From Patescibacteria group bacterium (GTDB taxonomy: Bacteria > Patescibacteriota > Patescibacteriia > 2-02-FULL-49-11), in assembly GCA_041645165.1 (NCBI GenBank), contig JBAZQN010000006.1, positions 4,933 to 68,932 on the forward strand: 64,000 nucleotides of DNA, written 5' to 3'. Positions 738-20,129 of this stretch are shown in pieces. Made by a program: the position numbers and the translations under genes. Under the pieces are notes generated by a model that made no database searches, was not told the origin of the DNA, and saw nothing but the letters and a program-made list of their open reading frames with translations. Every line of letters begins with the position of its first letter. The first letter of the stretch is position 1.

Positions 738-1226
738 TTATTTTTTCCAAGTTGTATTAATTTGCTTTATATTGTTAATTTTTTCTTTTTTAAAAAATTT
801 AATAAACAAGAACACTATCCCACTGATCACTAAGAATAAAGCTAGCCATCGTTTAAGAAGTTCTCTATAATAAGTCTTCTCTAAAAAAGTGTACTTCTCG
901 CCTATGTTTCCTTCTATGTACTCATAACCTAATTTTTCACAACATGGTTCAATATCTTTTAAATAAACAGTCGCTGTTAAATCGCATTGCTCAAATTTAT
1001 TAGCAATACTCCTATCATTATATTCAAGCTTCCAACCAGGTGGAACACTAAATGATTTTGAATTAAAACCCTCACCTTTGGCAGAAATATAAAAACCACA
1101 CTGTTGAGTTGTCTCATTTATAGCGTAACCAGTCGTAGGACCTAAAGCATTAACAGAGCTCGTAAGATATAAACAATTAATAATTATTAATACTAAGCTA
1201 GCCAAAACAATTTTCTTTTTAGACAT
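738..1226 (-). CDS. hypothetical small secreted/membrane-anchored protein (paralog 1 of a tandem pair)
   Basis: 162-aa ORF. N-terminus MSKKKIVLASLVLIIINCLYL is signal/TM-like. Lies in a ~30% GC AT-rich block. Next ORF has the same MSKKKI + TM start. Confidence 0.45.
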   Translation of the reverse strand: MSKKKIVLASLVLIIINCLYLTSSVNALGPTTGYAINETTQQCGFYISAKGEGFNSKSFSVPPGWKLEYNDRSIANKFEQCDLTATVYLKDIEPCCEKLGYEYIEGNIGEKYTFLEKTYYRELLKRWLALFLVISGIVFLFIKFFKKEKINNIKQINTTWKK

Positions 1227-1240
1227 AAAAGTTGTGTAAT

Positions 1241-1684
1241 CTATTTACTTTTCTGTTTATCTTTAAATAATAACAATTTCACTATTAAAAAATACAGTGA
1301 CATATAAATGGGTAGCGTTAACAAATAATAGTAATTATATTCCCTGATACCAAAGCCATGCCACTTAGATGCCAACCAAGGAAATGGAAAACCATATTTT
1401 ACTATTTCTTCTTGTGCGTCTGCGACACTGGCATGTTCTATGCTCCATAAATCATCCGATTCAGAACTATTTTTATCATAATAATCACGGTTACTGTAAT
1501 CCTTAAAATAAATAGTAACAAAAAATAATTTTATAGTTACATCTCTTAAACATCGGGGATTAGAGTCGACATTGACATAATTATGACCATAAACATTAAA
1601 ACAATGGTCATAAAAAAATATTATTTTATAGCTTAAATTTATGCAGATTAGAATAATAAATAAAATAATTTTCTTTTTAGACAT
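1241..1684 (-). CDS. hypothetical small secreted/membrane-anchored protein (paralog 2)
   Basis: 147-aa ORF with N-terminus MSKKKIILFIILICINLSY. Tandem with previous ORF and equally AT-rich. Confidence 0.45.
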   Translation of the reverse strand: MSKKKIILFIILICINLSYKIIFFYDHCFNVYGHNYVNVDSNPRCLRDVTIKLFFVTIYFKDYSNRDYYDKNSSESDDLWSIEHASVADAQEEIVKYGFPFPWLASKWHGFGIREYNYYYLLTLPIYMSLYFLIVKLLLFKDKQKSK

Positions 1685-1900
1685 AAAATTGTTCTCTATT
1701 ATGATGATAAAATTAGTATCTAGAACTATTTGAAGTGGTAATAAGTCGGCTCAATTCCCTCCATTTGAGCCGATAACTAAATCCCTAATCGGCTCATTCG
1801 CGCCGTGTTTGAGCCGAAAGATCCCGCGGTTTGAGCTGTTTCTTTATTAGTATCTGCTGACTAGGCTCACCCTAACCCATTATCATTTCTTCTGCGCCTT

Positions 1901-1946
1901 TTGAGGATGAAATATGCGCTTCATCCACTCAATCATGCCTAGAAGG
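1901..1946. repeat. direct repeat copy 1: diverged duplicate of the P-type ATPase 3' end (translates to ...HPQKAQKK*)
   Basis: 37/37 nt identical (ggatgaaatatgcgcttcatccactcaatcatgccta) to 2468-2504, which encodes the real C-terminus ...MIEWMKRIFHPHKKGKD*. Confidence 0.7.
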
Positions 1947-1978
1947 TCAGAATTACTCATGTTTTTAATAAACATGCA

Positions 1979-2410
1979 TTAACTAAGTTTTTTAATAAAC
2001 CTGATTGCTTTATTAATTTTATAGATTTCTTTAACCACGCAATAGGGTAAAATCACTAAAATGATAAATAGCATTATGAACAAAATCAAAATAACTGGGA
2101 ATAAATCTTTATCAATGAATTGAAAAAAATCTTTACTAAAAACATCTTTACTAAAAAAGGATATAATCATTATCATTATAAAAAGATATACAGATACTAA
2201 AAATAGTCTACCAAACTTTTGTCGTGTTAATTCAACAATATTTTTATCTAATATTATCAAATTGTATAAAAAGTTATTTTGTTTCGCTAAACATCCTTTA
2301 TGATAAAATAATACAGTATGCAATAAGGAAGCCGCACCTAAATAATCCCGCTCAGCAATAATCAAATCGTCCCTGGAATATATTTCTTTTTTGCATTGAT
2401 AACATTTCAT
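1979..2410 (-). CDS. hypothetical zinc-ribbon (CxxC...HxxC) membrane protein
   Basis: 143-aa ORF with N-terminal C-x2-C ... HKGC, followed by two hydrophobic segments. Sits between the two direct-repeat copies of the ATPase 3' end. Confidence 0.35.
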   Translation of the reverse strand: MKCYQCKKEIYSRDDLIIAERDYLGAASLLHTVLFYHKGCLAKQNNFLYNLIILDKNIVELTRQKFGRLFLVSVYLFIMIMIISFFSKDVFSKDFFQFIDKDLFPVILILFIMLFIILVILPYCVVKEIYKINKAIRFIKKLS

Positions 2411-2445
2411 ATTTTATTTCATTAAAGTATCAAAAATCTTTAAAT

Positions 2446-5178
2446 TTAATCTTTTCCTTTCTTGTGTGGATGAAATATGCGCTTCATCCACTCAATCATG
2501 CCTATAAAGACGCAGGAAATGAAGAGGATAAGCAGCCAGTCATGCGGTAAGAGAGGTACGGTGCCAAAGAGGTGCTGTAGCGCGGGGATGTAGATTACGG
2601 CGACTTGGAGCAATAATCCCGTGACGGCAGCAAGGATGAGCATGGGATTCCGCATAAATGGGATCCGCCAAATCGGCTCCTGCAGGGAGCGCAATGAAAA
2701 TACATAAACCGTGGCAGTGACCGAGAGCGTCGTGAATGCTATGGTCCGCGCAAGTTCCAGGGAATGGAACATATTCCAATAGAAGATGAAAAGGAGAAGA
2801 CTTAATATGGCAGAACAGGTGCTAATCGCGCCGATCAACCAGCGATGCTCGTGCATAAGAATAGATTCCCCTCTTACCCGCGGCTTTTCGCGCATGAGGG
2901 CGCGGTTGGCCGGCTCCTGGGTAAGCGCGAGCGCGGGAAACGTGTCAGTGACAATATTGACCCATAAAATTTGAGCAGGAAGATAGGGAAGGGGCCACCC
3001 CATCAGAAGCGCAAAAGTAATCGCAATGGTTTCCGTAAAGCTGTTAGAAAGCATATAAAGCGCCACGGTGCGGATATTATGGTAGATAAGCCTGCCCTCG
3101 CGTATGGCGCTCGTCATAGTGCGGATATGATTATCGAGAAGCACTATGTCCGACGACTCCTTTGCCACATCAGTGCCGCTCCCCAAGGCAACGCCGATGT
3201 CAGCCGCTTTCAAGGCGGGAGCGTCATTCACCCCGTCCCCTGTCATCGCAACCACCGCGCCTCTCGCTTTCCATGCCGCGATAATGCGGAGCTTGTCTTC
3301 AGGCGTTGCGCGGGAAAATACCGCAATATTATTTATCTTTTCCGCGAGCGCATTGAGCGAGAGTTCCTTGAGTTCGCTTCCATCCATTACCCTTCTTGCG
3401 CCCTTTAATAACCCAAGCGTTCGCCCGATGGAAGTGGCGGTAAGGCGATGATCGCCGGTTATCATGACCGTGCGGATGCCTGCTTTTTCCGCTTCCGCAA
3501 TGGTTTCCACCGCACCCTCGCGCAGAGGATCTTGGATGCCGATAAAGCCAAGAAATATCAAATCATGAAGAGGATTAACCATCTTTTTCAGCTCCCGTGC
3601 GTCTCTGCGTGCCTCCCTTTTCGTAATGCAGAGCACCCGCAATCCTTGTCCGCTCATGCGTTCCACTTTTTTATTCAGCGCATCTATCCCCTCACGGCTT
3701 AAAGGCACCACTCGGCCAGATTCGTCTTCTACATACTTGATAAAAGGGAGAAGGATTTCTGGCGCGCCTTTTACATAGAGCACGTCCTTTACGCTTCCCT
3801 CTGCCGCGGATGCGCGATGGAGCGTGCACATATATTTATCCTTTGAATTAAACGGCTGTTCAGCGCGGCGAGGATAGAGGTTCCGTAATGCGGCGACATC
3901 TATCCCATGGTCGAGAGCGGCGCGCATGAGCGCCCTGTCAGTGGTATTACCCGTGGCCACAGGGCCCGAAACAGCTCCCCCCATCTCATACGGCGCGGCA
4001 TCATTGCATACCACCATGGCAGTGACAAGCTCCTCTAACCCAGCATGTAAATCGTTTAACGCACGTTCGCGCAGTATATTGTAGGAACGAAGGTATGTGT
4101 CCATCCGCACTACTTGCATCTCCCCCACGGTGAGCGTGCCTGTTTTATCGGCACAGATGACGGATGTCGCACCGAGCGTTTCTGCGGCATGGAGCTTTTT
4201 TACGAGCCCTTTCTGCGTTAAAATTCTCTGCATGCCGATCGCAAGCACCACGGTAACAGCAATGGTAAGCCCTTCTGGAATCGCCGATACCGCAACTGCA
4301 ATCGCGGTCGCAAACATATCTGCAATCCCCTCTCCTTGAAAAATGCCGAATCCGAAAATTAATAGAACCACGACAATAATCGCAAACGCGAGCTCGCGTC
4401 CGAATCGGTTTAATTGCTTCTGGAGCGGCGTGCGCTCTTCCGGCGTTCGCGCAAGAAGCAGGGCAATATGCCCTACCTGCGTATGCGCACCCGTGGCCAC
4501 CACGAGCCCGCTTCCCCGTCCCGCAGTCACGACCGTACCAAACCAAAGCATGTTGATCTGTTCCGCAAGCACGCGTGCGGTATGAAGGGTGCGGACATCC
4601 TTTTTCGCGGGGTGCGATTCCCCCGTGAGCATGCTCTCATTGGCCTCCAGGGCATGCTCCGATAATAGGCGAATATCCGCGGGCACGCGGTCACCCGCCT
4701 GTACGGAAACGATATCGCCGGGCACCAGTTCCTCCTGCGGCACTTCCACGAGCGCGCCATCTCGTAGAACCCGCGCTTTGGTGACGATGACCTTCTGTAG
4801 CGCGGCAAGCGCATGCTGCGCACGGCGCTCTTGGAACGCGCCCACCGCTACATTTATGAATACCGCACCCAAAATAACCTGCGCATCGACTACATCTCCC
4901 AGCATGAAACTCGCCACAGACGCCGCGATCAGTATGACGACTAAAACATTGGCAAACTGGCGGAGCAGAATGAGCAAAAAGAAGTTACGATTCTCACGAT
5001 GCGGCAACACATTATTACCCCACTGCGTGCGGCGCTCGAGCGTCTCTCTCGTGGTAAGCCCTTGCGGGGTTGCGTGCAATTCCTGGAGGATCTCCTTGCC
5101 TGAACGCAATGAAAATGACCCCCCCGGAGATTGCCCTCCGAGCGGCTCTGCTTCCTTTTTTTGTCCCAGGTTAGTCAT
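2446..5178 (-). CDS. cation-transporting P-type ATPase (P2-type, Ca2+/Mg2+-like)
   Basis: 910 aa. Motifs: ICADKTGTLT (phosphorylation site), MITGDHRLTA, TGDGVNDAPALKAADIGVALG. Cation-ATPase N-domain and 10 TM-like segments. Confidence 0.9.
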   Translation of the reverse strand: MTNLGQKKEAEPLGGQSPGGSFSLRSGKEILQELHATPQGLTTRETLERRTQWGNNVLPHRENRNFFLLILLRQFANVLVVILIAASVASFMLGDVVDAQVILGAVFINVAVGAFQERRAQHALAALQKVIVTKARVLRDGALVEVPQEELVPGDIVSVQAGDRVPADIRLLSEHALEANESMLTGESHPAKKDVRTLHTARVLAEQINMLWFGTVVTAGRGSGLVVATGAHTQVGHIALLLARTPEERTPLQKQLNRFGRELAFAIIVVVLLIFGFGIFQGEGIADMFATAIAVAVSAIPEGLTIAVTVVLAIGMQRILTQKGLVKKLHAAETLGATSVICADKTGTLTVGEMQVVRMDTYLRSYNILRERALNDLHAGLEELVTAMVVCNDAAPYEMGGAVSGPVATGNTTDRALMRAALDHGIDVAALRNLYPRRAEQPFNSKDKYMCTLHRASAAEGSVKDVLYVKGAPEILLPFIKYVEDESGRVVPLSREGIDALNKKVERMSGQGLRVLCITKREARRDARELKKMVNPLHDLIFLGFIGIQDPLREGAVETIAEAEKAGIRTVMITGDHRLTATSIGRTLGLLKGARRVMDGSELKELSLNALAEKINNIAVFSRATPEDKLRIIAAWKARGAVVAMTGDGVNDAPALKAADIGVALGSGTDVAKESSDIVLLDNHIRTMTSAIREGRLIYHNIRTVALYMLSNSFTETIAITFALLMGWPLPYLPAQILWVNIVTDTFPALALTQEPANRALMREKPRVRGESILMHEHRWLIGAISTCSAILSLLLFIFYWNMFHSLELARTIAFTTLSVTATVYVFSLRSLQEPIWRIPFMRNPMLILAAVTGLLLQVAVIYIPALQHLFGTVPLLPHDWLLILFISCVFIGMIEWMKRIFHPHKKGKD
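2465..2510. repeat. direct repeat copy 2 (functional 3' end of ATPase gene)
   Basis: Same 37-bp core as 1905-1941. Lies inside CDS 2446..5178. Confidence 0.7.
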
Positions 5179-5295
5179 TTCCTTAATATTGTACGATGAA
5201 TAGGCATATATGGCAAAAACAGCTCTCCATTCCTTTCTCTTGCTATATTCTGTATAATACTGTTATCCACTCAGTTATAGATAAACCCTTTTAAA

Positions 5296-5402
5296 TATAT
5301 AACCAGACGCGAGTTGCCGCGTTTCGCCGCGAGGACTGTTTGAGTCCCGCGAAGCGGGACGAGTTCCGCAGCAAGAAAGGCGGCAACCGCGGCGGAATAG
5401 AA
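5296..5402. repeat. GC-rich leader element family F copy 1 (GCGAGGACTGT...GAGTCCCGCGAAGCGGGAC...GAGTTCCGCAGCAAGAAA)
   Basis: Shares GCGAGGACTGT, GTCCCG/CGGGAC hairpin and GAGTTCCGCAG(C)AAGAAA with 7076-7215. Partial similarity to 17030-17110. Confidence 0.5.
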
Positions 5403-5470
5403 CCATATTTCTAAAGGTTCATCTCTATAAAACCATTCCATTTGAATATTAACAAATAACTTTATACCCT

Positions 5471-5929
5471 ATGCCCCCCACTCCAGCCCAACCAGAGGAA
5501 CAAAAAGGCACCTTGCGCCCTTGGCTTTCTATCCTCGTAGTGCTCATTTTTGCCATAATTGCATGGGCCTATATCGCCCAAAAGGCCAAAACTAACGTAC
5601 AAGAGGAAGGTGTATCGACCGTAAACCAGCCTCCTCTCCCACCCACGCTCACGCTTCCCCAAGAGCCGCCAACGCTCACAGGCGCGATGACTTTTATCCA
5701 AGGCGCTAACCTCACCGTGATGGTCCTTAAGGAAAATAATCCTACGCTTGAGATTGATAAAGCGCTTATCGTCTCGGTAAGCGCTGATACCAAGATTGCG
5801 GATAAGGGCGGCAAGGCGCTGGCCTCTGACGCGCTGAAGGTGGGCGATACCATCGCCGTGTATAGCCAATTGCCTCTCACGGACGAGAGCTCAGTAGTAC
5901 CCGCGGATATTATCGTAATCAATCCTTAA
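5471..5929 (+). CDS. hypothetical membrane-anchored protein
   Basis: 152-aa ORF with one N-terminal TM (LSILVVLIFAIIAWAYIA), a Pro/Thr-rich linker, and coding-like composition. Overlapping minus ORF 5462..5869 judged less likely. Confidence 0.4.
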   Translation: MPPTPAQPEEQKGTLRPWLSILVVLIFAIIAWAYIAQKAKTNVQEEGVSTVNQPPLPPTLTLPQEPPTLTGAMTFIQGANLTVMVLKENNPTLEIDKALIVSVSADTKIADKGGKALASDALKVGDTIAVYSQLPLTDESSVVPADIIVINP

Positions 5930-6116
5930 ATCTAAATCCCATTCTCCACATTTTACACAAACCCCCTTCCTGAAGAAGGGGGTTTATTCATGCATAAATT
6001 TAATTTCAGTACCTTAGGCGCCGTAAAAAAATAACATATCCCGCCATCTACGCCGTACGTCAACAAAATAAGGACAAATCTATGGGACAAGTGAAATGTT
6101 ATTTTTTTAAGCGCCC

Positions 6117-7025
6117 TTAGGGTATGGCCAATGATTTTGCGAAAGAATCAGACAATGTAAATATCTCATCTTCTCCTGCGGCGCGGATCCACCACACATT
6201 TTGTTGCTTTACCAATGTGACTTCTCCCGAATCTGCTTCCAAAGAACCTTTGAATGAAATTATTATCCCTTTTGCTTCCTTTTGCGCAAAAGTGGCTTTA
6301 TCCTTTTCCGTGTCTATAAATCCTGTGGCTTTCAAGGGATGCAAAGCGGCTATTAATGTCTCCATCTCTGCATTGCCTGCGGCCACAGTGGCGGCCCCTG
6401 CGCTCACCTCCCACGTGTCTCCATCCTTGTGATAGGTTTTTATGGTTGCCCCTTGCATGCGGTAGGTGATCGTGTCAAGCGCGGCGGGGTCAATATTCAC
6501 AATCGTTTTATTCCTCCAAGAATCAATAAGCAACGGGAATACAAGAGACAGATTGGCATTGGCCAGATAGACCTCATCTTTGCCCTCAATCTTCACATAA
6601 GACGAGCTGTAGGTAGGGCCGCTTTTGCCTACCCTGAATGCGATACGCGTATCCTCCACGCGCAGGGAAATCAACAGCCCTTCATCACCAACTCCTAATC
6701 TTTCAAAATTCTCGGGGTTGCGAGATATGGGGCCTTCATAGGCACTGGTGCGCAAAGTATCCAAGGCTTTTTGCACCAGCTCCGCATCTGCGCGTTTCCC
6801 ATCTACGCGCCACGCACCGTCCTGTCGCGCTAAGGCAATAACGCTTTCATCTTTCTTAATCTCTATCTCCCCAACCTGCGAAGGGTCCATATTCTGAAGC
6901 GCTTTACTCATATTATTGGCGTTTCCACTCTTCTCCCCTCTTCCTTTCCGCCACCTCACTCCTCCTATTATCGCCGCAAGCACCACTACGATAAGCGCAA
7001 GAATTAACAATACTTTTTTGCTCAT
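6117..7025 (-). CDS. DUF4340-like protein, partner of the ABC/GldG transport system
   Basis: 302 aa with N-terminal TM (LLILALIVVVLAAIIGG). Sits 3' of the GldG-like gene, the typical DUF4340 context. Confidence 0.6.
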   Translation of the reverse strand: MSKKVLLILALIVVVLAAIIGGVRWRKGRGEKSGNANNMSKALQNMDPSQVGEIEIKKDESVIALARQDGAWRVDGKRADAELVQKALDTLRTSAYEGPISRNPENFERLGVGDEGLLISLRVEDTRIAFRVGKSGPTYSSSYVKIEGKDEVYLANANLSLVFPLLIDSWRNKTIVNIDPAALDTITYRMQGATIKTYHKDGDTWEVSAGAATVAAGNAEMETLIAALHPLKATGFIDTEKDKATFAQKEAKGIIISFKGSLEADSGEVTLVKQQNVWWIRAAGEDEIFTLSDSFAKSLAIP

Positions 7026-11814: not shown

Positions 11815-12123
11815 CTATTTCCTAAAACTAGGATAGCTCCGCATTAATTTTTGCAAACGCTTTTTATAATCACGAAATTTGTTATCAAGTTCAATTTCAT
11901 CCTCCCCGCTCAACCCTACCTCCCGATATGTCCTGTAATCTTCTTCTATCTTTAAAAACAAATCAACAGTCTCTTTCAAATATTTCTCTATTTCTATAAG
12001 CTCAATCAGCTTTCCCTCCATCAGATTAATACGCAGAATCAGATCCTGCATCATAGTCCTCAAATGGCCCTCTAACTCTTTTCGAGAGCAATCACCTCCT
12101 TCAGGCCTCTTTTCTCCATTCAT
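11815..12123 (-). CDS. hypothetical small coiled-coil protein
   Basis: 102-aa ORF immediately 3' of tkt, charged/helical. No recognisable motif. Confidence 0.3.
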   Translation of the reverse strand: MNGEKRPEGGDCSRKELEGHLRTMMQDLILRINLMEGKLIELIEIEKYLKETVDLFLKIEEDYRTYREVGLSGEDEIELDNKFRDYKKRLQKLMRSYPSFRK

Positions 12124-12126: not shown

Positions 12127-14091
12127 TTATTGCCCTAAAGACCGCACCGCCTGTAGTATAGCACCTCTGTCAATTTCCTCAAAACCCAATAATTCCGCGG
12201 GCGTGCCGCTCTTCGGAGTTTTGCGCACTGCGAGTGATTTAAACGCGGCGCCAGTGCCCGCGATTGCTTCTGCCACCGCCTCTCCCAATCCCCCTTCCGG
12301 CACATGGTCTTCCACGGTAATAATCTTGCCTGTCTCTTGAGCCGCCCTTACGAGCGCCGCGCGATCGATGGGTTTTAGAGAATAACAATCTATGATTCTC
12401 AATTCAATTCCTTCTTGCGCCAAAGTATCTGCCGCGGCAAGCGCTTCAAAAAGGGTAATGCCGGCGGCAACGATAGTGCAGACGTCTCGCGCGCTTGACC
12501 TTAACGTCTTACTGCCGCCGATCGGAAACTGTTCCTCCGGACCATAAATGACAGGCGTTGCTCCGCGTGTCGTGCGGAGGTAAACAATGCCATTATAACG
12601 CACAGCTTCATGAACTAGTCTTTCCGTAGCAGGGGCATCTGACGGATAAAGCACCACTGCATCCTGCACCGCCCTAAACATGGCAATGTCCTCGAGCCCC
12701 ATCTGGCTGGGGCCGTCTTCGCCGATAGACACGCCTGCATGCGAACCCACAAACTTCACATTCGCTTTGCTGTACGATGCCATCCTGATCTGGTCAAAGG
12801 CGCGGGTAAAGAACGCCGCAAAAGTGCTGCAAAACGGGATCATACCTCGCTTCGCAAGCCCTACGGCGACACCCACCATATTCTGCTCCGCGATAAACAT
12901 TTCCACAAACTGCTGGGGGGTGCCCTTCTTCACCAATTCTGCAAAGGTGGAATTTTTCACTTCAGCGTCCACCGCCACCACCCGCGGATCCTCACGCGCC
13001 AGTTTCTCCAACGCTTCCCCATACGCTTTCCGCGTCGCGATCAAGTCTCCCTTCTTGTACTCGGTATTAGGTATTACGTATTTCGTATTATGCACTTGAT
13101 CGCTCGCCCCCTGATACCTACTACCTGATACCTGATACGAAACGTCTGGCATTGCAACTGTCCCTCTTAATCGAGTATCAATTTCTCTCAACTCCCCTAA
13201 TGCTTTTTCATATTCTTCAACAGAGAGCGCTTTGCCATGCCACCCTTCCTTATTCTCCATGCACGACACACCCTTCCCCTTTAGGGTCTTTGCGATAATC
13301 ATGGTTGGTTTATCTTGTGTACCCTTAGCCTTGCGATAGGCAGAGAGTATCTCATCAGTATTATGGCCATCCACTATAATCGTTTCCCAGCCAAATGCGG
13401 CGACCCTTCGGGCATACGCGTCCACATCGTGGCCCGCCATAGTCTCTCCGCTCTGCCCCAAACGGTTCACGTCTATAATACCGACTAAATTATCCAGTTT
13501 TTCATGCCCCGCCCACATGATTGCCTCCCACACCGAACCTTCTGCCATTTCGCTGTCTCCGAGAAGCACATACACGCGTGAAACACACCCCTCCTCACTC
13601 CGTTCGGTACCCCTCTCAAGAGGGGAATTACCCGAAGTCCCCTCCTGCGGAGGGGTGTCCCGCCATTGAGGGACGGGGTGGGTAAACCGCTTCAATGCGA
13701 GCGCCATGCCTGCACCTACTGACAGCCCCTGTCCGAGCGAACCAGTCGCCACTTCCGTATAGCGAAACGTCGGCATAGGATGCCCTTCCAGGGGTGAATT
13801 AAATTTTCGCAATGATAAAAGCTCATCTTCGTTTACCGCTCCCGCAGCCGCATAGAGCGCATACAACAAGGGAGCAGCATGCCCTTTAGAAAAAATCACT
13901 CGGTCATTCAAAGGATATTCCGGATGGTCAAGGTCAAAACGCAAAATGCCGCCAAAGAAAAGTACTGTCATGAGATCGGTCGCGGAGAGCGAAGAGCTCG
14001 GATGACCAGACCCTGCCGCGGTCGTCGCGCGAAGGATAAAATAGCGCACCAGCTGCGCGAGATTTTCAAGAGTTTCTTTCGTGGTTTGCAT
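12127..14091 (-). CDS. tkt: transketolase (single-chain short form)
   Basis: GHPSSSLSATDLM...SKGHAAPLLYA (TPP-binding N-domain), plus pyrimidine-binding and C-terminal domains. Contains an extra ~30-aa loop (HPVPQWRDTPPQEGTSGNSPLERGTERSEEGCVS) encoded by a palindromic insert. Confidence 0.9.
   Translation of the reverse strand: MQTTKETLENLAQLVRYFILRATTAAGSGHPSSSLSATDLMTVLFFGGILRFDLDHPEYPLNDRVIFSKGHAAPLLYALYAAAGAVNEDELLSLRKFNSPLEGHPMPTFRYTEVATGSLGQGLSVGAGMALALKRFTHPVPQWRDTPPQEGTSGNSPLERGTERSEEGCVSRVYVLLGDSEMAEGSVWEAIMWAGHEKLDNLVGIIDVNRLGQSGETMAGHDVDAYARRVAAFGWETIIVDGHNTDEILSAYRKAKGTQDKPTMIIAKTLKGKGVSCMENKEGWHGKALSVEEYEKALGELREIDTRLRGTVAMPDVSYQVSGSRYQGASDQVHNTKYVIPNTEYKKGDLIATRKAYGEALEKLAREDPRVVAVDAEVKNSTFAELVKKGTPQQFVEMFIAEQNMVGVAVGLAKRGMIPFCSTFAAFFTRAFDQIRMASYSKANVKFVGSHAGVSIGEDGPSQMGLEDIAMFRAVQDAVVLYPSDAPATERLVHEAVRYNGIVYLRTTRGATPVIYGPEEQFPIGGSKTLRSSARDVCTIVAAGITLFEALAAADTLAQEGIELRIIDCYSLKPIDRAALVRAAQETGKIITVEDHVPEGGLGEAVAEAIAGTGAAFKSLAVRKTPKSGTPAELLGFEEIDRGAILQAVRSLGQ
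13575..13680. repeat. in-frame GC-rich triple-hairpin insertion inside tkt
   Basis: Three hairpins: cccctctcaagagggg, cccctcctgcggagggg, gtcccgccattgagggac. Lies between the conserved GQGLSVGAGMALA and RVYVLLGD motifs. Confidence 0.6.
14041..14091. repeat. direct repeat: tkt 5' end (copy 1, functional start)
   Basis: tagcgcaccagctgcgcgagattttcaagagtttctttcgtggtttgcat, ~90% identical to 16950-17000. Confidence 0.75.
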
Positions 14092-14219
14092 ATTTTTTAT
14101 TGAGTACTTATTTAACCAAATCCAAACCTATTTTAAACGGTACTGATAACGTGCCTTGCTCCCCGATAGCCCAAATGCTCGAACGATGCGGACAAAGAAA
14201 GGCGCTCTGAAGTTGAATG

Positions 14220-14984
14220 TTAAAAATTTCCAAAAATCATTATACACCGTGAGCTTTTATTTTGGTCGAACTTTTTATGAACGTTAAAATCACCCAAGAG
14301 TTTCTTTAATTTCCATCTCTTCCCTAATAAACTCTTAACTTCCTTCACCGTGAGATATTGCTGCGTCTCAGTGTCTTGGATTACACGCCTCTCTCCAGTC
14401 TTTTTATTAGTAATTGTGTAAACGTAACTTGATTCACGAATCCTATTTTGATTAATAATCCAATCTCTGGTCACCGTTAACTGGTATTGCTTATTATTTA
14501 CTGGAGCATAGGTCTTGTGAAATTCTCTCATCGTTATATAACGATAGAAATTCGCTTCTTCTAATATGATTACTTGTTTTATGTGGCTTTTTAACCAATG
14601 AAAAAAATGTTTGCGCCCCTTTGCGTTCAGAATGTAAGGAAATGTGGACCACATACAAATCGCTGCATCATAATTTTTTTGAAGCGCTATGGTCTCAAAA
14701 GTTCCCTGTGCGGTCTTTAATTGGATATACCCTTTTTTCGCTTGAAGCAGCGCATTCTTCGACTGGTCAAATATAGTTACATCGTACCCTTGAGAAGCAA
14801 GGATCTTAGAATGCATGCCCACCCCGCCACCGAGATCGATAATGGTCTTAACCTTTCCCCCAAAAGTTCCCACAACTCCTAAAATAAATTCCGTCTCGTC
14901 TTTCTCTGCTCCTTTCCGTTCCTCTAAACTTTCACGAAAAAGTGGGTAAAGGTTGGTAAGTCTTTCGTACATCAACGTTTTCAT
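14220..14984 (-). CDS. class I SAM-dependent methyltransferase
   Basis: Motif I IIDLGGGVGMHS and acidic loop DVTIFDQS. Located in the AT-rich island. Confidence 0.7.
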   Translation of the reverse strand: MKTLMYERLTNLYPLFRESLEERKGAEKDETEFILGVVGTFGGKVKTIIDLGGGVGMHSKILASQGYDVTIFDQSKNALLQAKKGYIQLKTAQGTFETIALQKNYDAAICMWSTFPYILNAKGRKHFFHWLKSHIKQVIILEEANFYRYITMREFHKTYAPVNNKQYQLTVTRDWIINQNRIRESSYVYTITNKKTGERRVIQDTETQQYLTVKEVKSLLGKRWKLKKLLGDFNVHKKFDQNKSSRCIMIFGNF

Positions 14985-15769
14985 ACTGACCTTTTTTTAC
15001 TTAAAACTTGGACTATCTCTTTATGATTCAATGAATTGGCCGCGACATAACTGGGCTGATATAGATCAACTCTTTGACCCTTAAAATTGGTCACTTTCCC
15101 TCCCGCCTCTCGGACAATAAGGCTTCCGGCAGCCCAATCCCATGGTTTATCTACACGATCAATACATCCATCAATTCTTCCCAACGCGAGATAAGCGAGT
15201 ACCGTACATGCTGAATTAAAAATTCTCACCTCTCTCGTTTTGCCAACAAACCGATAGAGGATGCCGACATCTGCCCTATTAAAGTATGTTTCAGACGCAA
15301 GTATCGAATCTTTCAAGAGCCTGCGAGAAACTGAAAGTCTCCTTTTGCCCGCATAGGCACCGTGACCTTTGACCGCACTTAAGAGGAGATTTTCGCTAGG
15401 GAGATAGAGTACGCCGAGTATAATCTCGCCATTCATCTCTAACCCTATGGAAACGGAAAAAAGAGGGATTCCTCGTGCATAATTCGGGGTACCGTCAAGT
15501 GGGTCAATAATCCATTTATAGCCTCTTGTTAGAGAATATGCGGATGAAGACTCCTCCGCGAGGACAGTAAAATCTGGGGTCTCCTTTTTTAGATGCTCAA
15601 GGATAATTTTTTCACTTTTTATGTCTGCTTCCGTCACCCACGTTTCATCGTTTTTTCTATGAACCTGGATGGCGTCGTTTCGAAATTGTTTCATGAGGTA
15701 GTGACCAGCTTTCTCTGCTGCTGTCGAGGCTATCTTTAAACAAAAACCTAAATTCCCTTTACTATTCAT
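14981..15769 (-). CDS. inositol monophosphatase-family phosphatase (SuhB/HisN-like)
   Basis: IMPase motifs WIIDPLDGTPNY and …WDWAAG…. Confidence 0.8.
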   Translation of the reverse strand: MNSKGNLGFCLKIASTAAEKAGHYLMKQFRNDAIQVHRKNDETWVTEADIKSEKIILEHLKKETPDFTVLAEESSSAYSLTRGYKWIIDPLDGTPNYARGIPLFSVSIGLEMNGEIILGVLYLPSENLLLSAVKGHGAYAGKRRLSVSRRLLKDSILASETYFNRADVGILYRFVGKTREVRIFNSACTVLAYLALGRIDGCIDRVDKPWDWAAGSLIVREAGGKVTNFKGQRVDLYQPSYVAANSLNHKEIVQVLSKKRSV

Positions 15770-15771
15770 AT

Positions 15772-16908
15772 CTATCCCAAAATACCTTTAATGGCATGTA
15801 ACACCCTGTTATTCGATTCCTGATCCAAAACAGTGATGCGCACAAAATGATTATGGAATTGCTTACTCATTGAATCGCAGTTCCTGATATACACACCCTT
15901 ATCTTTAAGCTTCTCGATTAACAGAGAGGCGGATATCTTTTTAAGCTGGCAAAGAATAAAATTGGTGACTGATGGAAAAGTCACTAATCCCGGGAGCTTG
16001 GCTAACTCTCTAAACAATAATTTTTCAAGTTTATGTGTTTTTTCTATTTTTTTGGCATAATATTTCCAATTTGAAATAGCAGCTATTGCCGCCATCTGAC
16101 CTGGCAGGCTAACCGACCACGGTGGAATACGCAAAATAAGGCTTTTTGTGATACTTGCATTTGCGATAAGATACCCCACACGCAATCCCGAGAGAGCATA
16201 AATCTTTGACATAGATTTCAATATGCACAGATTAGGATGCTGATCCACTAAAGTCTCACATGATTCATGATGTCCTACATATTCGATATATGTTTCATCA
16301 ACTATAATCATAGTATTTTTGGGAACAGCGGCAATAAACTCTTGCACTTGTGCACGAGTCATATAGGTACCTGCCGGGCTATTAGGATTTACTATAACAA
16401 CTACCTTCGGTTTGTGCTGAATAACATCTTTGATTAGCTGGCTAAGGGAAACTTGAAAATTATTTTCTGGTTTTAAAGCATGAGAAACGATTTTACAACC
16501 TACTACCTTCTCCATTACGTGCAGGTACTCTCCATACATGGGATCAATAATCATGGCGAGATCCTTTTGCGTAAAAAGAATTTCTAAGAGCAAAAAAATT
16601 AATTGGGACGAACCTGTTCCGCATGAGATTAACCTTTCGGGGACCTCTCTAGTTTGTGATATGGTTTTTATGAGAGATTGCGGTCGCGCGGGCGGACTTG
16701 TATGAATAATGTGCTCTAGATGCTTTCTAAGCACCTGACTAACTGCGGGGGCAGGCGGATACCATGCATCAAGAACATCAGCGGGTATTATAGTATGACC
16801 AAGCTCAGAAATTCGACTAAAATCATACTTAAACTTTTCCCAAAAGCTTCCGCCATGAAATGCCGCGACATCAATTTGCCCTTTTCTCATTTTGCCGGTA
16901 TTACTCAT
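15772..16908 (-). CDS. class I/II PLP-dependent aminotransferase (HisC/CobD-like)
   Basis: 378 aa with PLP-lysine context SMSKIYALSGLRVGY and N-terminal fold-type I. Confidence 0.75.
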   Translation of the reverse strand: MSNTGKMRKGQIDVAAFHGGSFWEKFKYDFSRISELGHTIIPADVLDAWYPPAPAVSQVLRKHLEHIIHTSPPARPQSLIKTISQTREVPERLISCGTGSSQLIFLLLEILFTQKDLAMIIDPMYGEYLHVMEKVVGCKIVSHALKPENNFQVSLSQLIKDVIQHKPKVVVIVNPNSPAGTYMTRAQVQEFIAAVPKNTMIIVDETYIEYVGHHESCETLVDQHPNLCILKSMSKIYALSGLRVGYLIANASITKSLILRIPPWSVSLPGQMAAIAAISNWKYYAKKIEKTHKLEKLLFRELAKLPGLVTFPSVTNFILCQLKKISASLLIEKLKDKGVYIRNCDSMSKQFHNHFVRITVLDQESNNRVLHAIKGILG

Positions 16909-16949
16909 AAACTCTCAGCATAACAGCAGACAAAACGTCTTATGATTTA

Positions 16950-17000
16950 GTAGCGCACCATCTGCGCGAGATTTTCAAGAGTTTCTTTCGATGCTTGCAT
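16950..17000. repeat. direct repeat: displaced duplicate of tkt 5' end (encodes MQASKETLENLAQMVRY)
   Basis: tagcgcaccatctgcgcgagattttcaagagtttctttcgatgcttgcat. Bounds a ~2.86-kb AT-rich island together with 14041-14091. Confidence 0.75.
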
Positions 17001-17029
17001 ACAATATTATGGTGCAGTATTCTAAAGAT

Positions 17030-17110
17030 AGTCCGAACCGCTTTCGCCGCCTGCGGCGGCGAGGAAGTCCCCCCGCGAAAATTCGGAATGGCGGCGGAGC
17101 CGCACCGCTG
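17030..17110. repeat. GC-rich element related to family F
   Basis: Shares tttcgccgc, gcgagga, cccgcgaa and ggcggc with 5296-5402. Confidence 0.35.
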
Positions 17111-17153
17111 ACAATTTCAAGTTTTTCTTTGGCGGTATTTAATTATAACACAT

Positions 17154-17858
17154 TCAGAATTTTTTGAATTTCAGGCCCATAAAAAATTCGTAGAAAGGTC
17201 CTGCTACCATTCCAACACCAAATGCCCATAATAATTCTTCAATCGGAATACCTGAAATAAAAATATGGCTTAGGTTTGGAAGTAGCCACCATTTGTGTAT
17301 AACCCCCGGAAACAATGCAAGAAAAATTAGATAACCGAATAAAGTTAAGAGGCCCACCAACAGGCCACTTGCAAGCGCGTCAAAAAATAGGTCTCGTCTA
17401 AAATAAATCATAAAAGCACTTAAAATTCCAAAACTGACTAGGGCCGCATAAATCGAGTTAATCCCGAAATATACTGGAAGACCAAAAACTAAAAAGAAAA
17501 GTGCAAAGAAAGGAATGAGAAACCAAGTCCAATGATGTCTTCTATCTCTTCTTTTGCAAAAATGCTTACCAAAAACTTCCTCGTAAATCACATTAGCTAT
17601 GCCACCGAGAAAAAAACCATACAGAAAATCTTCAATACCTCCTAGTCGCCAATTTTTTAAAAAAGAAGAGTGTATATATTCTGGTCTCCAGTAATCTGCC
17701 AAAAACCATGGAGCCCATAAAATAGCAAGAATCCCGACACAGAAACTAGCAACTAAAATTTCTTTCCTACAATCCTTACGATGAATGAAAAAATATAACC
17801 AAAGTGGTAATGCTACAAGGTTTCCCAAAAGATATGCGTATTGAAAGTCATTAAACAT
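17154..17858 (-). CDS. hypothetical polytopic membrane protein
   Basis: 234 aa with ~7 hydrophobic helices. AT-rich. Confidence 0.45.
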   Translation of the reverse strand: MFNDFQYAYLLGNLVALPLWLYFFIHRKDCRKEILVASFCVGILAILWAPWFLADYWRPEYIHSSFLKNWRLGGIEDFLYGFFLGGIANVIYEEVFGKHFCKRRDRRHHWTWFLIPFFALFFLVFGLPVYFGINSIYAALVSFGILSAFMIYFRRDLFFDALASGLLVGLLTLFGYLIFLALFPGVIHKWWLLPNLSHIFISGIPIEELLWAFGVGMVAGPFYEFFMGLKFKKF

Positions 17859-17983
17859 GCATGATTAAAAAATTTTCTTCCCCCAAAATGCGAAATCGTG
17901 AATTCGTTTTTACCCCCAAAATTGAATACAAATTAGTCGCCGAGCGAAGCGAGGCGAGCCTTTCAAACTTGCAATTTCCTACG

Positions 17984-18059
17984 TGGTGCGCCCAGCAGGG
18001 ATCGAACCTGCGACCGTTGGCTTAAAAGGCCACTGCTCTACCAACTGAGCTATGGGCGC
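17984..18059 (-). tRNA. tRNA-Lys (anticodon UUU)
   Basis: GCGCCCATAGCTCAGTTGGTAGAGCAGTGGCCTTTTAAGCCAACGGTCGCAGGTTCGATCCCTGCTGGGCGCACCA. Cloverleaf with anticodon loop CUUUUAA; CCA is encoded. Confidence 0.85.
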
Positions 18060-18405: not shown

Positions 18406-18411
18406 TTAAGG

Positions 18412-18731
18412 TATGCCCAGTTATACAACTTCCCATATGTTCTTCTATATCTATGTATTGGAGAGTCTGCAGGATAACGAGAGATACGTAGGATATACTC
18501 ATAATCTGAGAAAACGATTAGAAGAACATAATAAGGGTAAGAATTTTGCCACAAAGTTTAGATTACCATTTAAACTCATTTACTTCGAAGGATGTTTTAA
18601 TCAAAACGACGCCAAACGCCGTGAACATTATCTGAAAGGAACCCAAGGTCGAAGGTTCTTAGGACTGCGGCTTCAGGAATACACTCGCAGTCAACCAGCG
18701 TTTGGCGTGGGAAGTTGATATACTGGGTATG
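18412..18731 (+). mobile_element. family A element, long copy A5 carrying a GIY-YIG nuclease ORF (candidate autonomous element), abutting the dnaB start
   Basis: Left end (g)tatgcccagttatacaacttccca matches the far TIR of A1–A4. Right end cgtttggcgtgggaagttgatatactgggtATG matches the near TIR. Flanked by ATG at 18413-18415 and 18729-18731. Confidence 0.7.
18413..18718 (+). CDS. small GIY-YIG nuclease family protein (COG2827/UPF0213-like)
   Basis: …FFYIYVLESLQDNERYVGYTHNLRKRLEEHNKGKNFATKFRLPFKLIYFEGC…AKRREHYLK. Has the GIY…YIG, R and E(H)N signature. Alternative start at ATG 18437. Confidence 0.7.
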   Translation: MPSYTTSHMFFYIYVLESLQDNERYVGYTHNLRKRLEEHNKGKNFATKFRLPFKLIYFEGCFNQNDAKRREHYLKGTQGRRFLGLRLQEYTRSQPAFGVGS

Positions 18732-20129
18732 CCCATCTCCCCCGACCGCCTTCCTCCCCAAAATCTTGAAGCAGAGCAATCGGTGCTGGGAAGCCTGCTT
18801 ATTGATAAAGAGGCAATTACGAAAATTGCCGATTTTTTGCATCCGGAAGATTTCTACCGCGACCTGCACGGGCTCATTTTTGAAACAATGCTTGAGCTCT
18901 ATGAGCGCAAAGAGCCCATCGACTTGCTCTCGCTTTCCGGACGGCTTGAAGAGAAAAAGAAACTGGAAATGGTGGGCGGGAGAGGATTTTTGGCAGGCCT
19001 TGCCAATGTGGTGCCCACGGCAAGCCACGTGGTGCACTACGGGCAGATCGTGCAGAAGAAGGCGATATTGAGGAGGCTTATTCATGCCGCCGCAGAAGTG
19101 GGTGAACTGGGATTCAATGAATCGGAAGACGTGGACGTGGTGCTCGATAAGGCGGAACAGCGGCTCTTCAATGTCTCGCAGCACAGCAGACGCCAAAATT
19201 TCGTCCCCGTCAAGCAGTTGCTTACCGAGGCATTTGATCGCATCGATGAGCTGCACCGCGAGTCAGGGAAACTGCGGGGCTTTAGGACAGGCTTCAAAGA
19301 ACTCGACCACAAGCTCGCGGGGCTCCAGCGCTCAAACCTCATCATTGTCGCGGCGCGGCCCAGCATGGGAAAAACGTCGCTCACCATAGACATCGCGCGC
19401 CATATCGCCACGCAGGAACATGTGCCCGTGGGTATATTTTCCCTTGAAATGTCAAAAGAGGAACTGGTGGACAGGATGCTCTGCGCAGAAGCGAACGTGG
19501 ACCTCTGGAAACTCCGCACCGGCAGGCTTTCGGACCGCGAAACGCCCCAAGGGGAAAGCGACTTTACCGCGATCGGCCGCGCCATGGGCACCCTCGCGGA
19601 GGCGCCTATTTATATTGATGATTCCGCGATACTCAACGTCATGGAAATCCGCACCAAAGCGCGGCGCTTGCATGCGGAAACCGGATTGGGATTCATCGTG
19701 GTAGATTACCTCCAGCTTATGGAAAGCGGCAGCAATCTGGAGAGCAGGGTCCAGGAAGTCGCGCAAATCACGCGGGGCTTAAAAGCGCTCGCCCGCGAAC
19801 TCAATGTTCCGGTACTCGCCGTGTCGCAGCTTTCGCGGCAGGCGGAAAACCGCCCCGGCTCCATTCCGCGCCTTGCCGACCTCCGGGAATCAGGATCCAT
19901 AGAACAGGACGCGGACGTGGTGATGATTATTTTCCGCGAAGAAATGTACAAGCCTGATACGCCGCGCAAGCACATCGCGGAAATCCATATCGCCAAACAC
20001 CGCAACGGCCCAACCGGTATTGTAGAACTCTACTTCGACGCGGAAAAAACCTCGTTTAAAAATCTGGAAAAGACAATGCCCATCACTAACATGCCACCTC
20101 CTCCTTCTGTTAGCAATCCATCATTTTAG
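18729..20129 (+). CDS. dnaB: replicative DNA helicase DnaB
   Basis: N-domain …PQNLEAEQSVLGSLLID…, Walker A ARPSMGKTSL, …LSQLSRQAENR… Annotated from the element-terminal ATG; the tracked ORF begins 27 nt earlier at a TTG inside the TIR. Confidence 0.9.
   Translation: MPISPDRLPPQNLEAEQSVLGSLLIDKEAITKIADFLHPEDFYRDLHGLIFETMLELYERKEPIDLLSLSGRLEEKKKLEMVGGRGFLAGLANVVPTASHVVHYGQIVQKKAILRRLIHAAAEVGELGFNESEDVDVVLDKAEQRLFNVSQHSRRQNFVPVKQLLTEAFDRIDELHRESGKLRGFRTGFKELDHKLAGLQRSNLIIVAARPSMGKTSLTIDIARHIATQEHVPVGIFSLEMSKEELVDRMLCAEANVDLWKLRTGRLSDRETPQGESDFTAIGRAMGTLAEAPIYIDDSAILNVMEIRTKARRLHAETGLGFIVVDYLQLMESGSNLESRVQEVAQITRGLKALARELNVPVLAVSQLSRQAENRPGSIPRLADLRESGSIEQDADVVMIIFREEMYKPDTPRKHIAEIHIAKHRNGPTGIVELYFDAEKTSFKNLEKTMPITNMPPPPSVSNPSF

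Follow-up and report, generated by a model that had tools for sequence, protein, structure and literature searches.

A low-GC three-gene island at the 5' end of a Patescibacteria transketolase gene, bounded by a duplicated gene start

Described insertions that supply a new gene end

Integrative elements such as IMEVchUSA3 at dusA and SXT at prfC provide their target gene with new upstream sequence and a new start (PMC8409611). A comparable situation is found at the transketolase gene (tkt) in a 64-kb stretch of DNA from a Patescibacteria group bacterium (the window): as in these elements, the entry point lies a few dozen nucleotides inside a housekeeping gene, an imported start with its upstream sequence keeps that gene functional, the original start is displaced to the far end, and direct repeats bound the insert (PMC8409611). 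The elements at dusA and prfC, however, span 20-100 kb and encode transfer functions as well as a tyrosine integrase and a directionality factor, whereas the tkt insert is 2.9 kb long, contains three metabolic genes and lacks a recombinase. Furthermore, and again unlike these elements, the upstream arm that it imported shows homology to a tkt upstream region.

Gene ends are also displaced without a recombinase. In the type VI secretion (T6SS) effector-immunity arrays of Vibrio cholerae and the orphan modules of Rhs and CDI systems, homology-facilitated illegitimate recombination leaves orphan gene ends (PMC5361080). There, as in the reading of the tkt locus that is preferred below, a module recombines at a part that it has in common with the resident gene, and the resident DNA is displaced but not removed and persists next to the module (PMC5361080). 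These cases concern 3' ends and toxin and immunity modules, and they recur into arrays; at tkt, one gene end is affected, the 5' end of a gene of central metabolism.

Two further systems resemble the locus in part. The cis-mobilizable elements (CIMEs) of Streptococcus are derived from integrative elements and consist of att-flanked cargo without an integrase; the tkt cargo, also placed at a gene end and flanked by two att-like direct repeats, is likewise free of integration and transfer genes. CIMEs occupy the sites of resident ICEs and can be acted on by the integrase of these ICEs, whereas we know of no resident ICE or integrase for the tkt-start site, nor is one visible. In Allomyces mitochondria, a GIY-YIG ORF accompanied by a foreign atp6 C-terminus represents an endonuclease-linked insertion with a replacement gene end. 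The tkt insert similarly brings a substitute gene end and leaves the old one as a pseudogene fragment, but the Allomyces-type cases affect 3' ends in organelles, and the tkt island contains no endonuclease gene. GIY-YIG genes elsewhere in the window and in L011 and L048 share the Allomyces-type layout.

The duplicated tkt start and the inserted genes

The features of the locus are listed in the order of their coordinates.

12127..14091, minus strand: tkt, transketolase of 654 aa, the intact target gene (PF00456, PF02779, PF02780; aligned with five homologues)
14035..14092, minus strand: proximal repeat copy, the live tkt start with ATG at 14091-14089, MQTTKETLENLAQLVRYFI... (repeat search, translation, 29-nt core)
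14092..14219, minus strand: methyltransferase-tkt spacer of 128 nt, whose final ~55-60 nt represent the tkt upstream sequence a second time, in a diverged version that arrived with the insert
14220..14984, minus strand: cargo gene 3, class-I SAM-dependent methyltransferase of 254 aa (PF13649, E 1.7e-7)
14981..15769, minus strand: cargo gene 2, IMPase-family phosphatase of 262 aa (PF00459, E 3.9e-55), overlapping gene 3 by 4 nt
15772..16908, minus strand: cargo gene 1, HisC/CobD-family PLP enzyme of 378 aa (PF00155, Aminotran_1_2, E 3.5e-45)
16909..16946, minus strand: leader of 38 nt between the stop codon of the relic and the aminotransferase start, forming the left boundary of the insert and conserved in both L082 and L086
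16944..17001, minus strand: distal repeat copy, relic of the original tkt start, with ATG at 17000-16998, 17 codons and TAA at 16949-16947
17002..17046, minus strand: remnant of the native tkt upstream sequence, still joined to the relic
17002..17986, minus strand: variable slot from the 3' end of tRNA-Lys to the relic, occupied here by a GC-rich stretch and by the gene (17154-17858) for a membrane protein of 234 aa that has a lycopene-cyclase domain
17984..18059, minus strand: tRNA-Lys(UUU), a conserved gene that marks the left side of the variable region (ARAGORN, Rfam), also present in L082 and L083

A repeat search of the 64-kb window yielded a single top family, the direct repeat pair of 58 nt with 88% identity and a spacing of 2909 bp; the 51-bp repeats of ~90% identity that had been reported in an earlier note are therewith confirmed and slightly extended. 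The window contains two exact occurrences of the 29-nt core CTGCGCGAGATTTTCAAGAGTTTCTTTCG (14053-14081 and 16962-16990), and none of 100 dinucleotide shuffles contained it, even with up to three mismatches permitted. No such pair is expected by chance.

Read on the minus strand, each copy opens with a tkt ATG, and the two differ in their state. The distal copy is identical to the single tkt start of the relatives L084/L085 over 37 coding nt and, together with the 17 nt preceding its ATG, matches L084 without interruption over 54 nt. As stated earlier, it encodes a tkt N-terminus with its own ATG (MQASKETLENLAQMVRY, then TAA). It is, however, not the diverged copy: it has retained the ancestral MQAS, whereas the proximal, functional copy has been altered to MQTT in this lineage. 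The reconstructed ancestral versions of both copies are identical across ~50 nt and have abrupt edges, and their immediate upstream sequences are strongly different. Conservation does not extend to the 17-codon mini-ORF of the relic, which an internal deletion of 17 nt destroys in L086.

Three genes, all on the minus strand, fill the DNA between the copies and leave only 38 + 128 nt. The island is what the earlier note had taken it for, an insertion of three genes at the very 5' end of tkt that is bounded by the duplicated tkt start. Profile searches place the products of cargo genes 1 and 2 in the HisC/CobD family and nearest to HisN and SuhB, respectively, yet all scores stay under the curated cut-offs. 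The product of cargo gene 1 reached 219.4 bits for TIGR01141 (hisC; cut-off 276.55) and 183 bits for TIGR01140 (CobD; cut-off 290.55), and its best PDB matches were HisC and a threonine-phosphate-decarboxylase-like enzyme with similar E-values. It is accordingly classified as a member of the wider PF00155 and not as a HisC or CobD equivalog. A DegT/StsC-type sugar aminotransferase was rejected, since Pfam gives Aminotran_1_2 only. For cargo gene 2, HisN (TIGR02067; 165.8 bits, cut-off 275.15) and SuhB (NF008027; 153.9, cut-off 332) are the nearest families; with both scores below the cut-offs it is a PF00459 member and not an equivalog of either. The NCBIfam matches of cargo gene 3 were weak, the top one being glycine/sarcosine N-methyltransferase (35 bits, cut-off 350). 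In a homologue (P0130 in L093) the methyltransferase is fused to the aminotransferase. For the chemistry of the cargo, we suggest a possible route in which a phosphorylated substrate would be transaminated or decarboxylated, then dephosphorylated and finally methylated.

The GC content of the island is 40.0%, compared to 48.0% for the window (2.9-kb windows: mean 48.2, sd 3.1) and to 52.9% and 54.8% for the flanking core genes tkt and dnaB. The drop of 13-15 points relative to these genes is real and corresponds to the low end of the ~15-20% claimed earlier, but the block of low GC continues past the distal repeat. It extends to ~18700 and includes the membrane-protein gene, the tRNA-Lys and a GIY-YIG gene. 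The tetranucleotide distance of the island is only moderately unusual (z 1.9, rank 6/123). Homologues of the cassette reside in Patescibacteria contigs of 44-46% GC, and the island with its 40% lies in a genome of 48-50% GC. This contrast counts in favour of a foreign origin of the cassette.

Occupied and empty sites in related genomes

In the related Patescibacteria genome L082 (~90% DNA identity), the island and both repeat copies are present, and a single continuous alignment with ~90.5% identity spans both copies (17001-13703). L086 contains the island as well; its upstream copy is the one with the 17-nt deletion. The 3' junction of the relic, CGCTAC|TAAAT, is the same in the window, L082 and L086. 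In contrast, L083 has a syntenic order of dnaB, tRNA-Lys, 360 bp and tkt with a single tkt start and no island, and L084/L085 also have one intact tkt start without an island; empty sites in relatives, which the earlier note had proposed to look for, therefore exist. Values of dS are 0.14-0.40 for the island genes and 0.19-0.92 for the flanking genes. The common junction, the empty relatives and the flank-like dS indicate one old insertion that was vertically inherited. It took place at tkt codons 17-18 in an ancestor common to this genome and at least two related lineages. With respect to L082, dN/dS is 0.19 for the aminotransferase, 0.23 for the IMPase-family gene and 0.17 for the methyltransferase; the cargo genes are under purifying selection.

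The island is thus an old fixed scar, fairly ordinary though well documented, and not an active mobile element. It is known from three related lineages only, with one common junction and flank-like divergence.

Origin of the insertion

The earlier note had regarded the duplicated gene end as the signature of site-specific integration. This was not borne out by the search for mobility functions. Pfam detected no integrase, recombinase or transposase domain in the three cargo proteins or their nearest neighbours, in agreement with the earlier statement that no integrase lies inside the island, and the other genes within ~10 kb have syntenic counterparts in L083 with Pfam hits to housekeeping families. 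Neither a recombination directionality factor nor a tRNA-fragment repeat was found in the island or region, including any partial copy of tRNA-Lys, and the repeat search gave no inverted pair at the island ends. Searches of viral, phage, plasmid and metagenome collections gave no hit to the island. A transposon or insertion sequence was rejected, because terminal inverted repeats and a transposase are missing and a duplication of ~50 nt is too long; transposon target duplications are far shorter than 50 nt.

The upstream sequences of the two starts are informative with respect to the mechanism. The native remnant at the relic is identical to L084 in 17/17 positions directly before the ATG and shows a weaker likeness to the L084 tkt upstream sequence out to ~-45 (z 8.5 versus shuffles). 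The imported sequence before the functional start resembles the same L084 region at roughly -25 to -60 (~79% identity by eye; z 6.6), but at -1 to -20 it is only about half identical. At -1 to -20, the functional copies of the window and L082 have a common sequence that is unlike the native type, and the spacer of the window is 93% identical to the proximal upstream sequence of L082 over the first ~94 alignment columns. The promoter-proximal sequence of the functional start thus differs from that of L084 and the distal copy, as expected for the imported replacement gene end that had been postulated. Because the imported sequence resembles a tkt upstream sequence, the chromosomal DNA of a relative fits better as its source than an unrelated attP arm.

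We therefore slightly favour an insertion mechanism in which DNA of a relative's tkt locus was recombined without an integrase. The complete explanation, a three-gene foreign operon that was inserted once into tkt and imported by homology-facilitated illegitimate recombination, is put forward tentatively. The ancestor would have taken up DNA from the tkt locus of a related lineage, and one homologous crossover in or beyond tkt plus one illegitimate joint at codon 17-19 would have integrated it. The incoming DNA brought its own tkt upstream sequence and start, the present proximal copy, so that tkt remained whole; the original start and ~45 nt of upstream sequence were displaced by 2.9 kb upstream, where a stub of 17 codons is now in decay. 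As a putative promoter, this relic probably still gives the cargo its transcription signals; the 38-nt leader that follows showed no significant structure in a structure check. On the left, the joint is abrupt past codon 17, with 7/12 further bases matching by eye. A right-hand junction or sharp breakpoint inside tkt is not visible in the alignment. The donor arrangement, with the cassette directly upstream of tkt and no relic, was not found in the very small sample of close relatives, nor did any of 80 more distant tkt loci in genome contigs contain the cassette (0/80); the other cassette homologues (L087, L088, L093, L095) do not adjoin tkt. The missing donor arrangement and breakpoint count against this recombination with a relative's locus, and so does the recombinase beside a cargo homologue in L093 that is described below. 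The ~50-nt identity beside strongly different upstream sequence also speaks against it, as it looks like an att core. Furthermore, codon 13 is CAG in both window copies and CGG in both L082 copies, which could result from gene conversion or from repeated excision and integration.

It is possible, but rather doubtful, that the island is instead the relic of a circular integrative element with a tkt-like start and a promoter of its own in its attP. Such an element would have entered the 5' end of tkt and left its cargo between attL and attR, the integrase being later deleted or acting in trans. The direct repeats with their exact core around low-GC cargo, the abrupt edges of the reconstructed copies and the intact single start in relatives are consistent with such an element, as is the supply of new upstream sequence and a start, known from IMEVchUSA3/dusA and SXT/prfC (PMC8409611). 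The codon-13 change common to both copies in each genome would suit cycles of excision and reintegration. In L093 the fusion homologue adjoins a large serine recombinase, so that cargo relatives can neighbour recombinases; to our knowledge, however, large serine recombinases do not generate 50-nt repeats. Against this origin also stand the absence of a mobility gene from the island, the scanned neighbours and the syntenic annotation within ~10 kb, and an island with no more than 38 + 128 nt to spare. The imported arm is homologous to a chromosomal tkt upstream region, a property that attP arms normally lack. In age the island equals its flanks, it bears no trace of recent movement, and neither a second copy nor a different cargo at the tkt-start site was present in the collections searched.

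An origin in situ is unlikely. Here, the tkt promoter and the first 17 codons would have been duplicated locally by tandem duplication or slipped repair, and no start would have been imported; the cassette would have been inserted between the copies, or would already have been located upstream and gained the copied promoter. As both upstream sequences are related to that of L084, the duplication may comprise ~100 nt (-45 to +50). The relic is located exactly where the cargo operon would need a promoter, and in L086 a TATATTG box is retained despite the loss of the mini-ORF. However, a local duplication requires two events, needs a separate transfer for the foreign GC of the cassette, and leaves unexplained why a half-diverged stretch at -1 to -20 lies beside 50 coding nt that are reconstructed as identical.

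Even less probable is a homing-like insertion, in which a nuclease-induced break at the tkt start would have been repaired from a donor allele with the cargo and an altered replacement start. The same layout is seen at the GIY-YIG gene at 18410-18735, which is flanked by inverted repeats, lies 7 nt into dnaB and is accompanied by a duplicated dnaB start, and also in L011 and L048, where GIY-YIG genes have the complete tRNA-Arg(CCG) on one side and a 27-36-nt duplicate of its 5' half on the other. The window and L082 contain both this GIY-YIG gene at dnaB and the tkt island, whereas L083 lacks the two of them and its dnaB site is empty. On the other hand, the tkt island contains no nuclease gene, the GIY-YIG gene is 1.4 kb away from the relic, past the conserved tRNA where the repair tract should end, and three cases with putative nuclease cleavage are too few.

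Chance similarity or an assembly artefact, for which nothing speaks except that metagenome bins are generally prone to misassembly at repeats, can be dismissed in view of the shuffles and of the recurrence of the structure both in the ~10% diverged L082 and in L001, a sequence-identical Logan contig from run SRR8449827.

The variable slot beyond the relic differs between close relatives. From 17987 to 17001 there is no homology with L082; the slot genes are unrelated to one another, and no recombinase is visible in the sequence examined. L082 contains an unrelated 155-aa gene at this position and L084 contains DpnI and small ORFs, whereas the slot of L083 comprises just 360 bp.

The tkt-start duplication and the enclosed island

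Between 12 and 21 kb of the window, the following features succeed each other in minus-strand order.

dnaB, on the strand opposite to tkt
18410-18735, small GIY-YIG gene including its flanking repeats
17984-18059, tRNA-Lys(UUU)
17154-17858, gene of a 234-aa membrane protein
16944-17001, minus strand, distal copy of the tkt start (the relic)
15772-16908, same strand as tkt, aminotransferase gene (Pfam Aminotran_1_2)
14981-15769, same strand as tkt, phosphatase gene (Pfam Inositol_P)
14220-14984, same strand as tkt, methyltransferase gene (Pfam Methyltransf_25)
14035-14092, minus strand, proximal copy of the tkt start
12127-14091, minus strand, tkt, coding for a 654-aa transketolase and opened by the proximal copy

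The three cargo genes are tightly packed between the two copies, which form a direct repeat of 58 nt (88% identical, 2909 bp apart). This repeat was the top family in a repeat search of the window. Its 29-nt core occurs exactly twice in the 64 kb, and none of 100 shuffles contained a match, even if three mismatches were allowed. Both copies open with an ATG on the minus strand; the distal one codes for MQASKETLENLAQMVRY and is then terminated by TAA. The 2858 bp between the copies have a GC content of 40.0%, compared to 48.0% for the window (sd of 3.1 for 2.9-kb windows); the values for tkt and dnaB are 52.9% and 54.8%, respectively. The tetranucleotide distance of the island is moderately unusual (z 1.9). 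The repeats and the island had been described correctly in an earlier note, except that the low-GC block does not end at the distal copy but extends to about 18700.

Close homologues were collected by a tkt protein search and their gene contexts by contig look-ups. A contig identical to the window, L001, came from the sequencing run SRR8449827. In the related genome L082 (GCA_040960315.1), whose transketolase is 79% identical at the amino acid level, a GIY-YIG gene, tRNA-Lys and an unrelated 155-aa gene are followed by aminotransferase, phosphatase, methyltransferase and tkt as in the window. The stretch from 17001 to 13703 gives a single continuous alignment with L082 (90.5%), and both tkt-start copies are present there at a distance of 2906 bp. 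In the Logan contig L086, whose aminotransferase is 85% identical in amino acids, the 3' junction of the distal relic (GTGCGCTAC followed by TAAATC) is the same as in the window. Other close relatives do not contain the island. In L083 (GCA_040757655.1; transketolase 71% identical in amino acids), which is syntenic on both sides, only 360 bp separate tRNA-Lys from a single tkt start, and both the cassette and the GIY-YIG gene are missing. L084/L085, whose tkt DNA is about 87% identical, likewise possess a single tkt start, preceded by a DpnI gene and small ORFs. A tkt search of genome contigs revealed no cassette among the matches listed, which were loci at 54-59% identity. The presence or absence of the island among close relatives, together with the one shared junction, points to a single insertion that was thereafter inherited vertically. 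In the comparison of the window with L082, dS is 0.14-0.40 for the cargo genes (dN/dS 0.17-0.23) and 0.19-0.92 for flanking genes. By this measure, island and flanks are of about the same age, and the cargo genes have been kept by selection.

Origin of the two starts and mode of insertion

Over 54 nt, the distal copy and the 17 nt upstream of its ATG match the single tkt start of L084/L085 without a difference, and a weaker similarity to the L084 upstream region continues to about -45 (z 8.5). The proximal copies of the window and of L082 share a sequence at -1 to -20 that is unlike the native one, whereas the region from about -25 to -60 again resembles the tkt upstream region of L084 (z 6.6; about 79% identical by eye). 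According to these comparisons, the distal copy represents the native start and has retained a stub of its promoter region. The start at the proximal copy was brought in by the insert, joined to a tkt-type upstream region of a diverged source. Set against L084 and L086, the four copies suggest that the pair was identical, between the ATG and base 2 of codon 17, when the insertion took place; the differences that now exist in the window were acquired mostly by the proximal copy (QAS to QTT). The earlier note had regarded the distal copy as the diverged one; judged against L084 and L086, it is the functional proximal copy that has diverged. At codon 13, both copies read CAG in the window and CGG in L082, a hint from a single site of gene conversion between the copies.

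The relic differs by 7% between the window and L082, like other non-coding DNA. A role of its mini-ORF as a conserved leader peptide was rejected, since L086 has TTG in place of the ATG, and a 17-nt internal deletion, which leaves TTG-CAT-TGA, has destroyed the ORF there. A special nucleotide conservation of the tkt 5' end was likewise discarded, as runs of 20-33 nt that are identical in three genomes are common throughout tkt. For the relic, leader and spacer, neither an Rfam family nor a fold better than shuffles was found.

The relic has retained the native sequence directly upstream of its ATG, including a CATAAT box that ends 5 nt before the ATG; L086 has kept TATATTG at this position though the ORF is lost. 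As the cargo operon starts 38 nt past the stop codon of the relic, it is probably transcribed from the former tkt promoter. Transcription of tkt would then depend on the imported upstream sequence, on read-through, or on both; between the methyltransferase gene and tkt there is no terminator-like site. A scan for sigma-70 promoters and terminators gave counts not above those of shuffles and nothing at the relic. The new genes have probably been set behind the promoter of an essential gene, and this gene was itself kept alive by an imported start.

Two mechanisms yield exactly such a product, namely integrase-mediated integration and recombination with linear DNA of a relative. We slightly favour the latter, in the form of homology-facilitated illegitimate recombination (HFIR), as a tentative explanation. 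The donor would be linear DNA of a relative with the cassette upstream of tkt, and joining would require a single homologous crossover within tkt together with a single illegitimate joint at codon 17-19. In other bacteria, HFIR has been proposed for displaced immunity genes and for orphaned gene 3' regions beside incoming modules (PMC5361080). It is preferred here because there is no trace of an integrase, because the imported arm is a diverged tkt upstream region and not unrelated element DNA, and because in every close relative the adjacent slot, which extends from tRNA-Lys to the relic, has received other, unrelated genes, with no recombinase visible in the sequence available. What speaks against HFIR is that the donor arrangement was found neither among the matches listed (80 more distant tkt loci) nor beside other cassette homologues. 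Moreover, tkt is without a visible breakpoint, as no sharp switch occurs in the sliding identity of the window, L082 and L084.

Also against HFIR is the reconstructed identity over 50 nt with its abrupt edges, which resembles an att core and would suit a circular element whose attP site held a tkt-like start plus promoter. Integration of such an element by an integrase nevertheless seems to us somewhat less likely than HFIR, given the missing integrase and the tkt-like nature of the imported arm. No recombinase, transposase or other mobility domain was detected in the cargo or its neighbours; the survey of the whole window for integrases comprised the best 25 of 79 families, so that the absence applies to the neighbourhood. 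No inverted repeats pair the island ends. The tkt core had no match in viral or metagenome contigs, the aminotransferase none in metagenome contigs, and the island DNA none in phages or plasmids. A tRNA-site island was rejected, as 14000-17984 contains no partial copy of tRNA-Lys. A duplication of the tkt start in situ is improbable, and a nuclease-driven, homing-like route even more so.

The proposal of the earlier note thus stands with respect to an insertion at the tkt start that brought a replacement start; the island is, however, an old, fixed scar, and no site-specific machinery was detected in the cargo or its neighbours. It is a further example of a type of structure already known in other bacteria. 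For this reason, and because the element is not active, its practical value is modest. It is nevertheless a clean, comparatively dated case of a reduced Patescibacteria genome that gained a metabolic operon without visible mobile-element machinery.

The cargo and homologous cassettes

The PLP enzyme scored 219 bits on hisC (cut-off 277) and 183 bits on CobD (cut-off 291), and some of its PDB matches are to HisC, others to a threonine-phosphate-decarboxylase-like enzyme; no sugar-aminotransferase family matched in Pfam. The phosphatase reached 166 bits on HisN (cut-off 275) and 154 bits on SuhB (cut-off 332). For the methyltransferase, the same profile search gave weak hits only. Homologous cassettes occur away from tkt in other Patescibacteria contigs:

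L087, aminotransferase, frameshifted IMPase, methyltransferase
L088, aminotransferase, IMPase, EamA, methyltransferase
L093/L094, methyltransferase-aminotransferase fusion
L095, HAD phosphatase adjoining an aminotransferase

In both L087 and L088, a conserved divergent gene of 293-296 aa is located upstream. At the L093 locus (2603-6388), the fusion is 45% and 43% identical in amino acids to the cargo; it is preceded by an HTH gene and adjoins a divergently oriented large serine recombinase of 535 aa. A search for flanking repeats around this recombinase and the cargo homologue gave nothing convincing. The conserved aminotransferase-phosphatase-methyltransferase cassette thus recurs in the phylum. 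The repeated pairing of the aminotransferase with a phosphatase of either fold and a methyltransferase is suggestive of a short pathway with a phosphorylated amine or keto-phosphate as substrate; this gene combination does not single out the compound. The literature offered nothing applicable on a bacterial route with a CobD-like enzyme and a phosphoethanolamine methyltransferase.

Gene-start insertions and neighbouring loci

The 101-aa GIY-YIG gene is flanked by an 18-26-nt inverted repeat (18410-18435 / 18708-18733). It is also bracketed by the direct repeat GGTATGCCCA (18410-18419, 18726-18735), which includes the dnaB start codon. L083, which does not possess this gene, has the uninterrupted site AAAAATGCCCATCTCC. 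These repeats and the empty site indicate an element of roughly 310 bp inserted after the first 7 nt of dnaB, with a second copy of the gene start. Its layout is that of the tkt island on a small scale.

GIY-YIG genes with 38-41% amino acid identity to that of the window are found in the contigs L011 (9478-9881) and L048 (2590-2997). There they lie upstream of tkt, with the complete tRNA-Arg(CCG) on one side and a copy of its 5' half on the other. The fragment, a perfect match of 36 nt in L011 and a diverged one of 27 nt in L048, ends at the anticodon in both. Two hairpins with compensatory changes lie between fragment and GIY-YIG ORF; Rfam detected no group I intron at these loci.

The layout was hence seen three times with different cargo and targets, namely at tkt (50-nt duplication), dnaB (7-10 nt) and tRNA-Arg(CCG). 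A recurrent, integrase-free insertion into the first nucleotides of essential Patescibacteria genes, with the replacement 5' end in the insert and the old one upstream, is a speculation to which we give little credence. Should one mechanism underlie all three, such as repair from a donor allele after a nuclease cut, there would be a new class of elements that target gene starts, with the tkt island as its cargo-bearing relative.

Unrelated genes occupy, in each close relative, the slot that extends from the 3' end of tRNA-Lys to the original tkt start (window 17002-17986; L082 1380-2068; L084 1-2400):

Window, lycopene-cyclase-domain membrane protein
L082, 155-aa protein without a Pfam hit
L084, DpnI restriction enzyme and small ORFs, including a 194-aa protein without a Pfam hit that looks PIN-like by sequence
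L083, no gene

In the alignment of the window with L082, homology is lost precisely at the end of the tRNA and again at the base that precedes the ATG of the relic. The interval from tRNA-Lys to tkt is a concrete locus with a different set of genes in every close relative. A GC-rich stretch (17030-17110; GCGGTGCGGCTCCGCCGCC...GCCGCCGCAGGCGGCG), located between the membrane-protein gene and the relic, is embedded in AT-rich surroundings; it is absent in L082 and L084 and folds no better than shuffles.

Directly downstream of tkt, a 102-aa ORF with 38% GC (11815-12123) has no Pfam or NCBIfam hit and no called counterpart in L082, where a gap of 280 nt exists; the only ORF at this place in L083 is one of 59 aa. 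The 102-aa ORF may represent a further small insertion specific to the lineage. The first 3900 nt of the window (1-3900) have the lowest GC content (34-40%) and the largest tetranucleotide distance; at 738-2410, three short ORFs precede a P-type ATPase, the first of which (738-1226) had no hit in the Pfam scan. Finally, the transketolase of the window contains a 31-aa in-frame insertion (VPQWRDTPPQEGTSGNSPLERGTERSEEGCVS; about 13590-13685, minus strand) that is absent from all five aligned homologues. The underlying DNA, which has no second copy in the window, contains numerous GGGG/CCCC hairpins, and its fold is better than that of shuffles (z -2.5).
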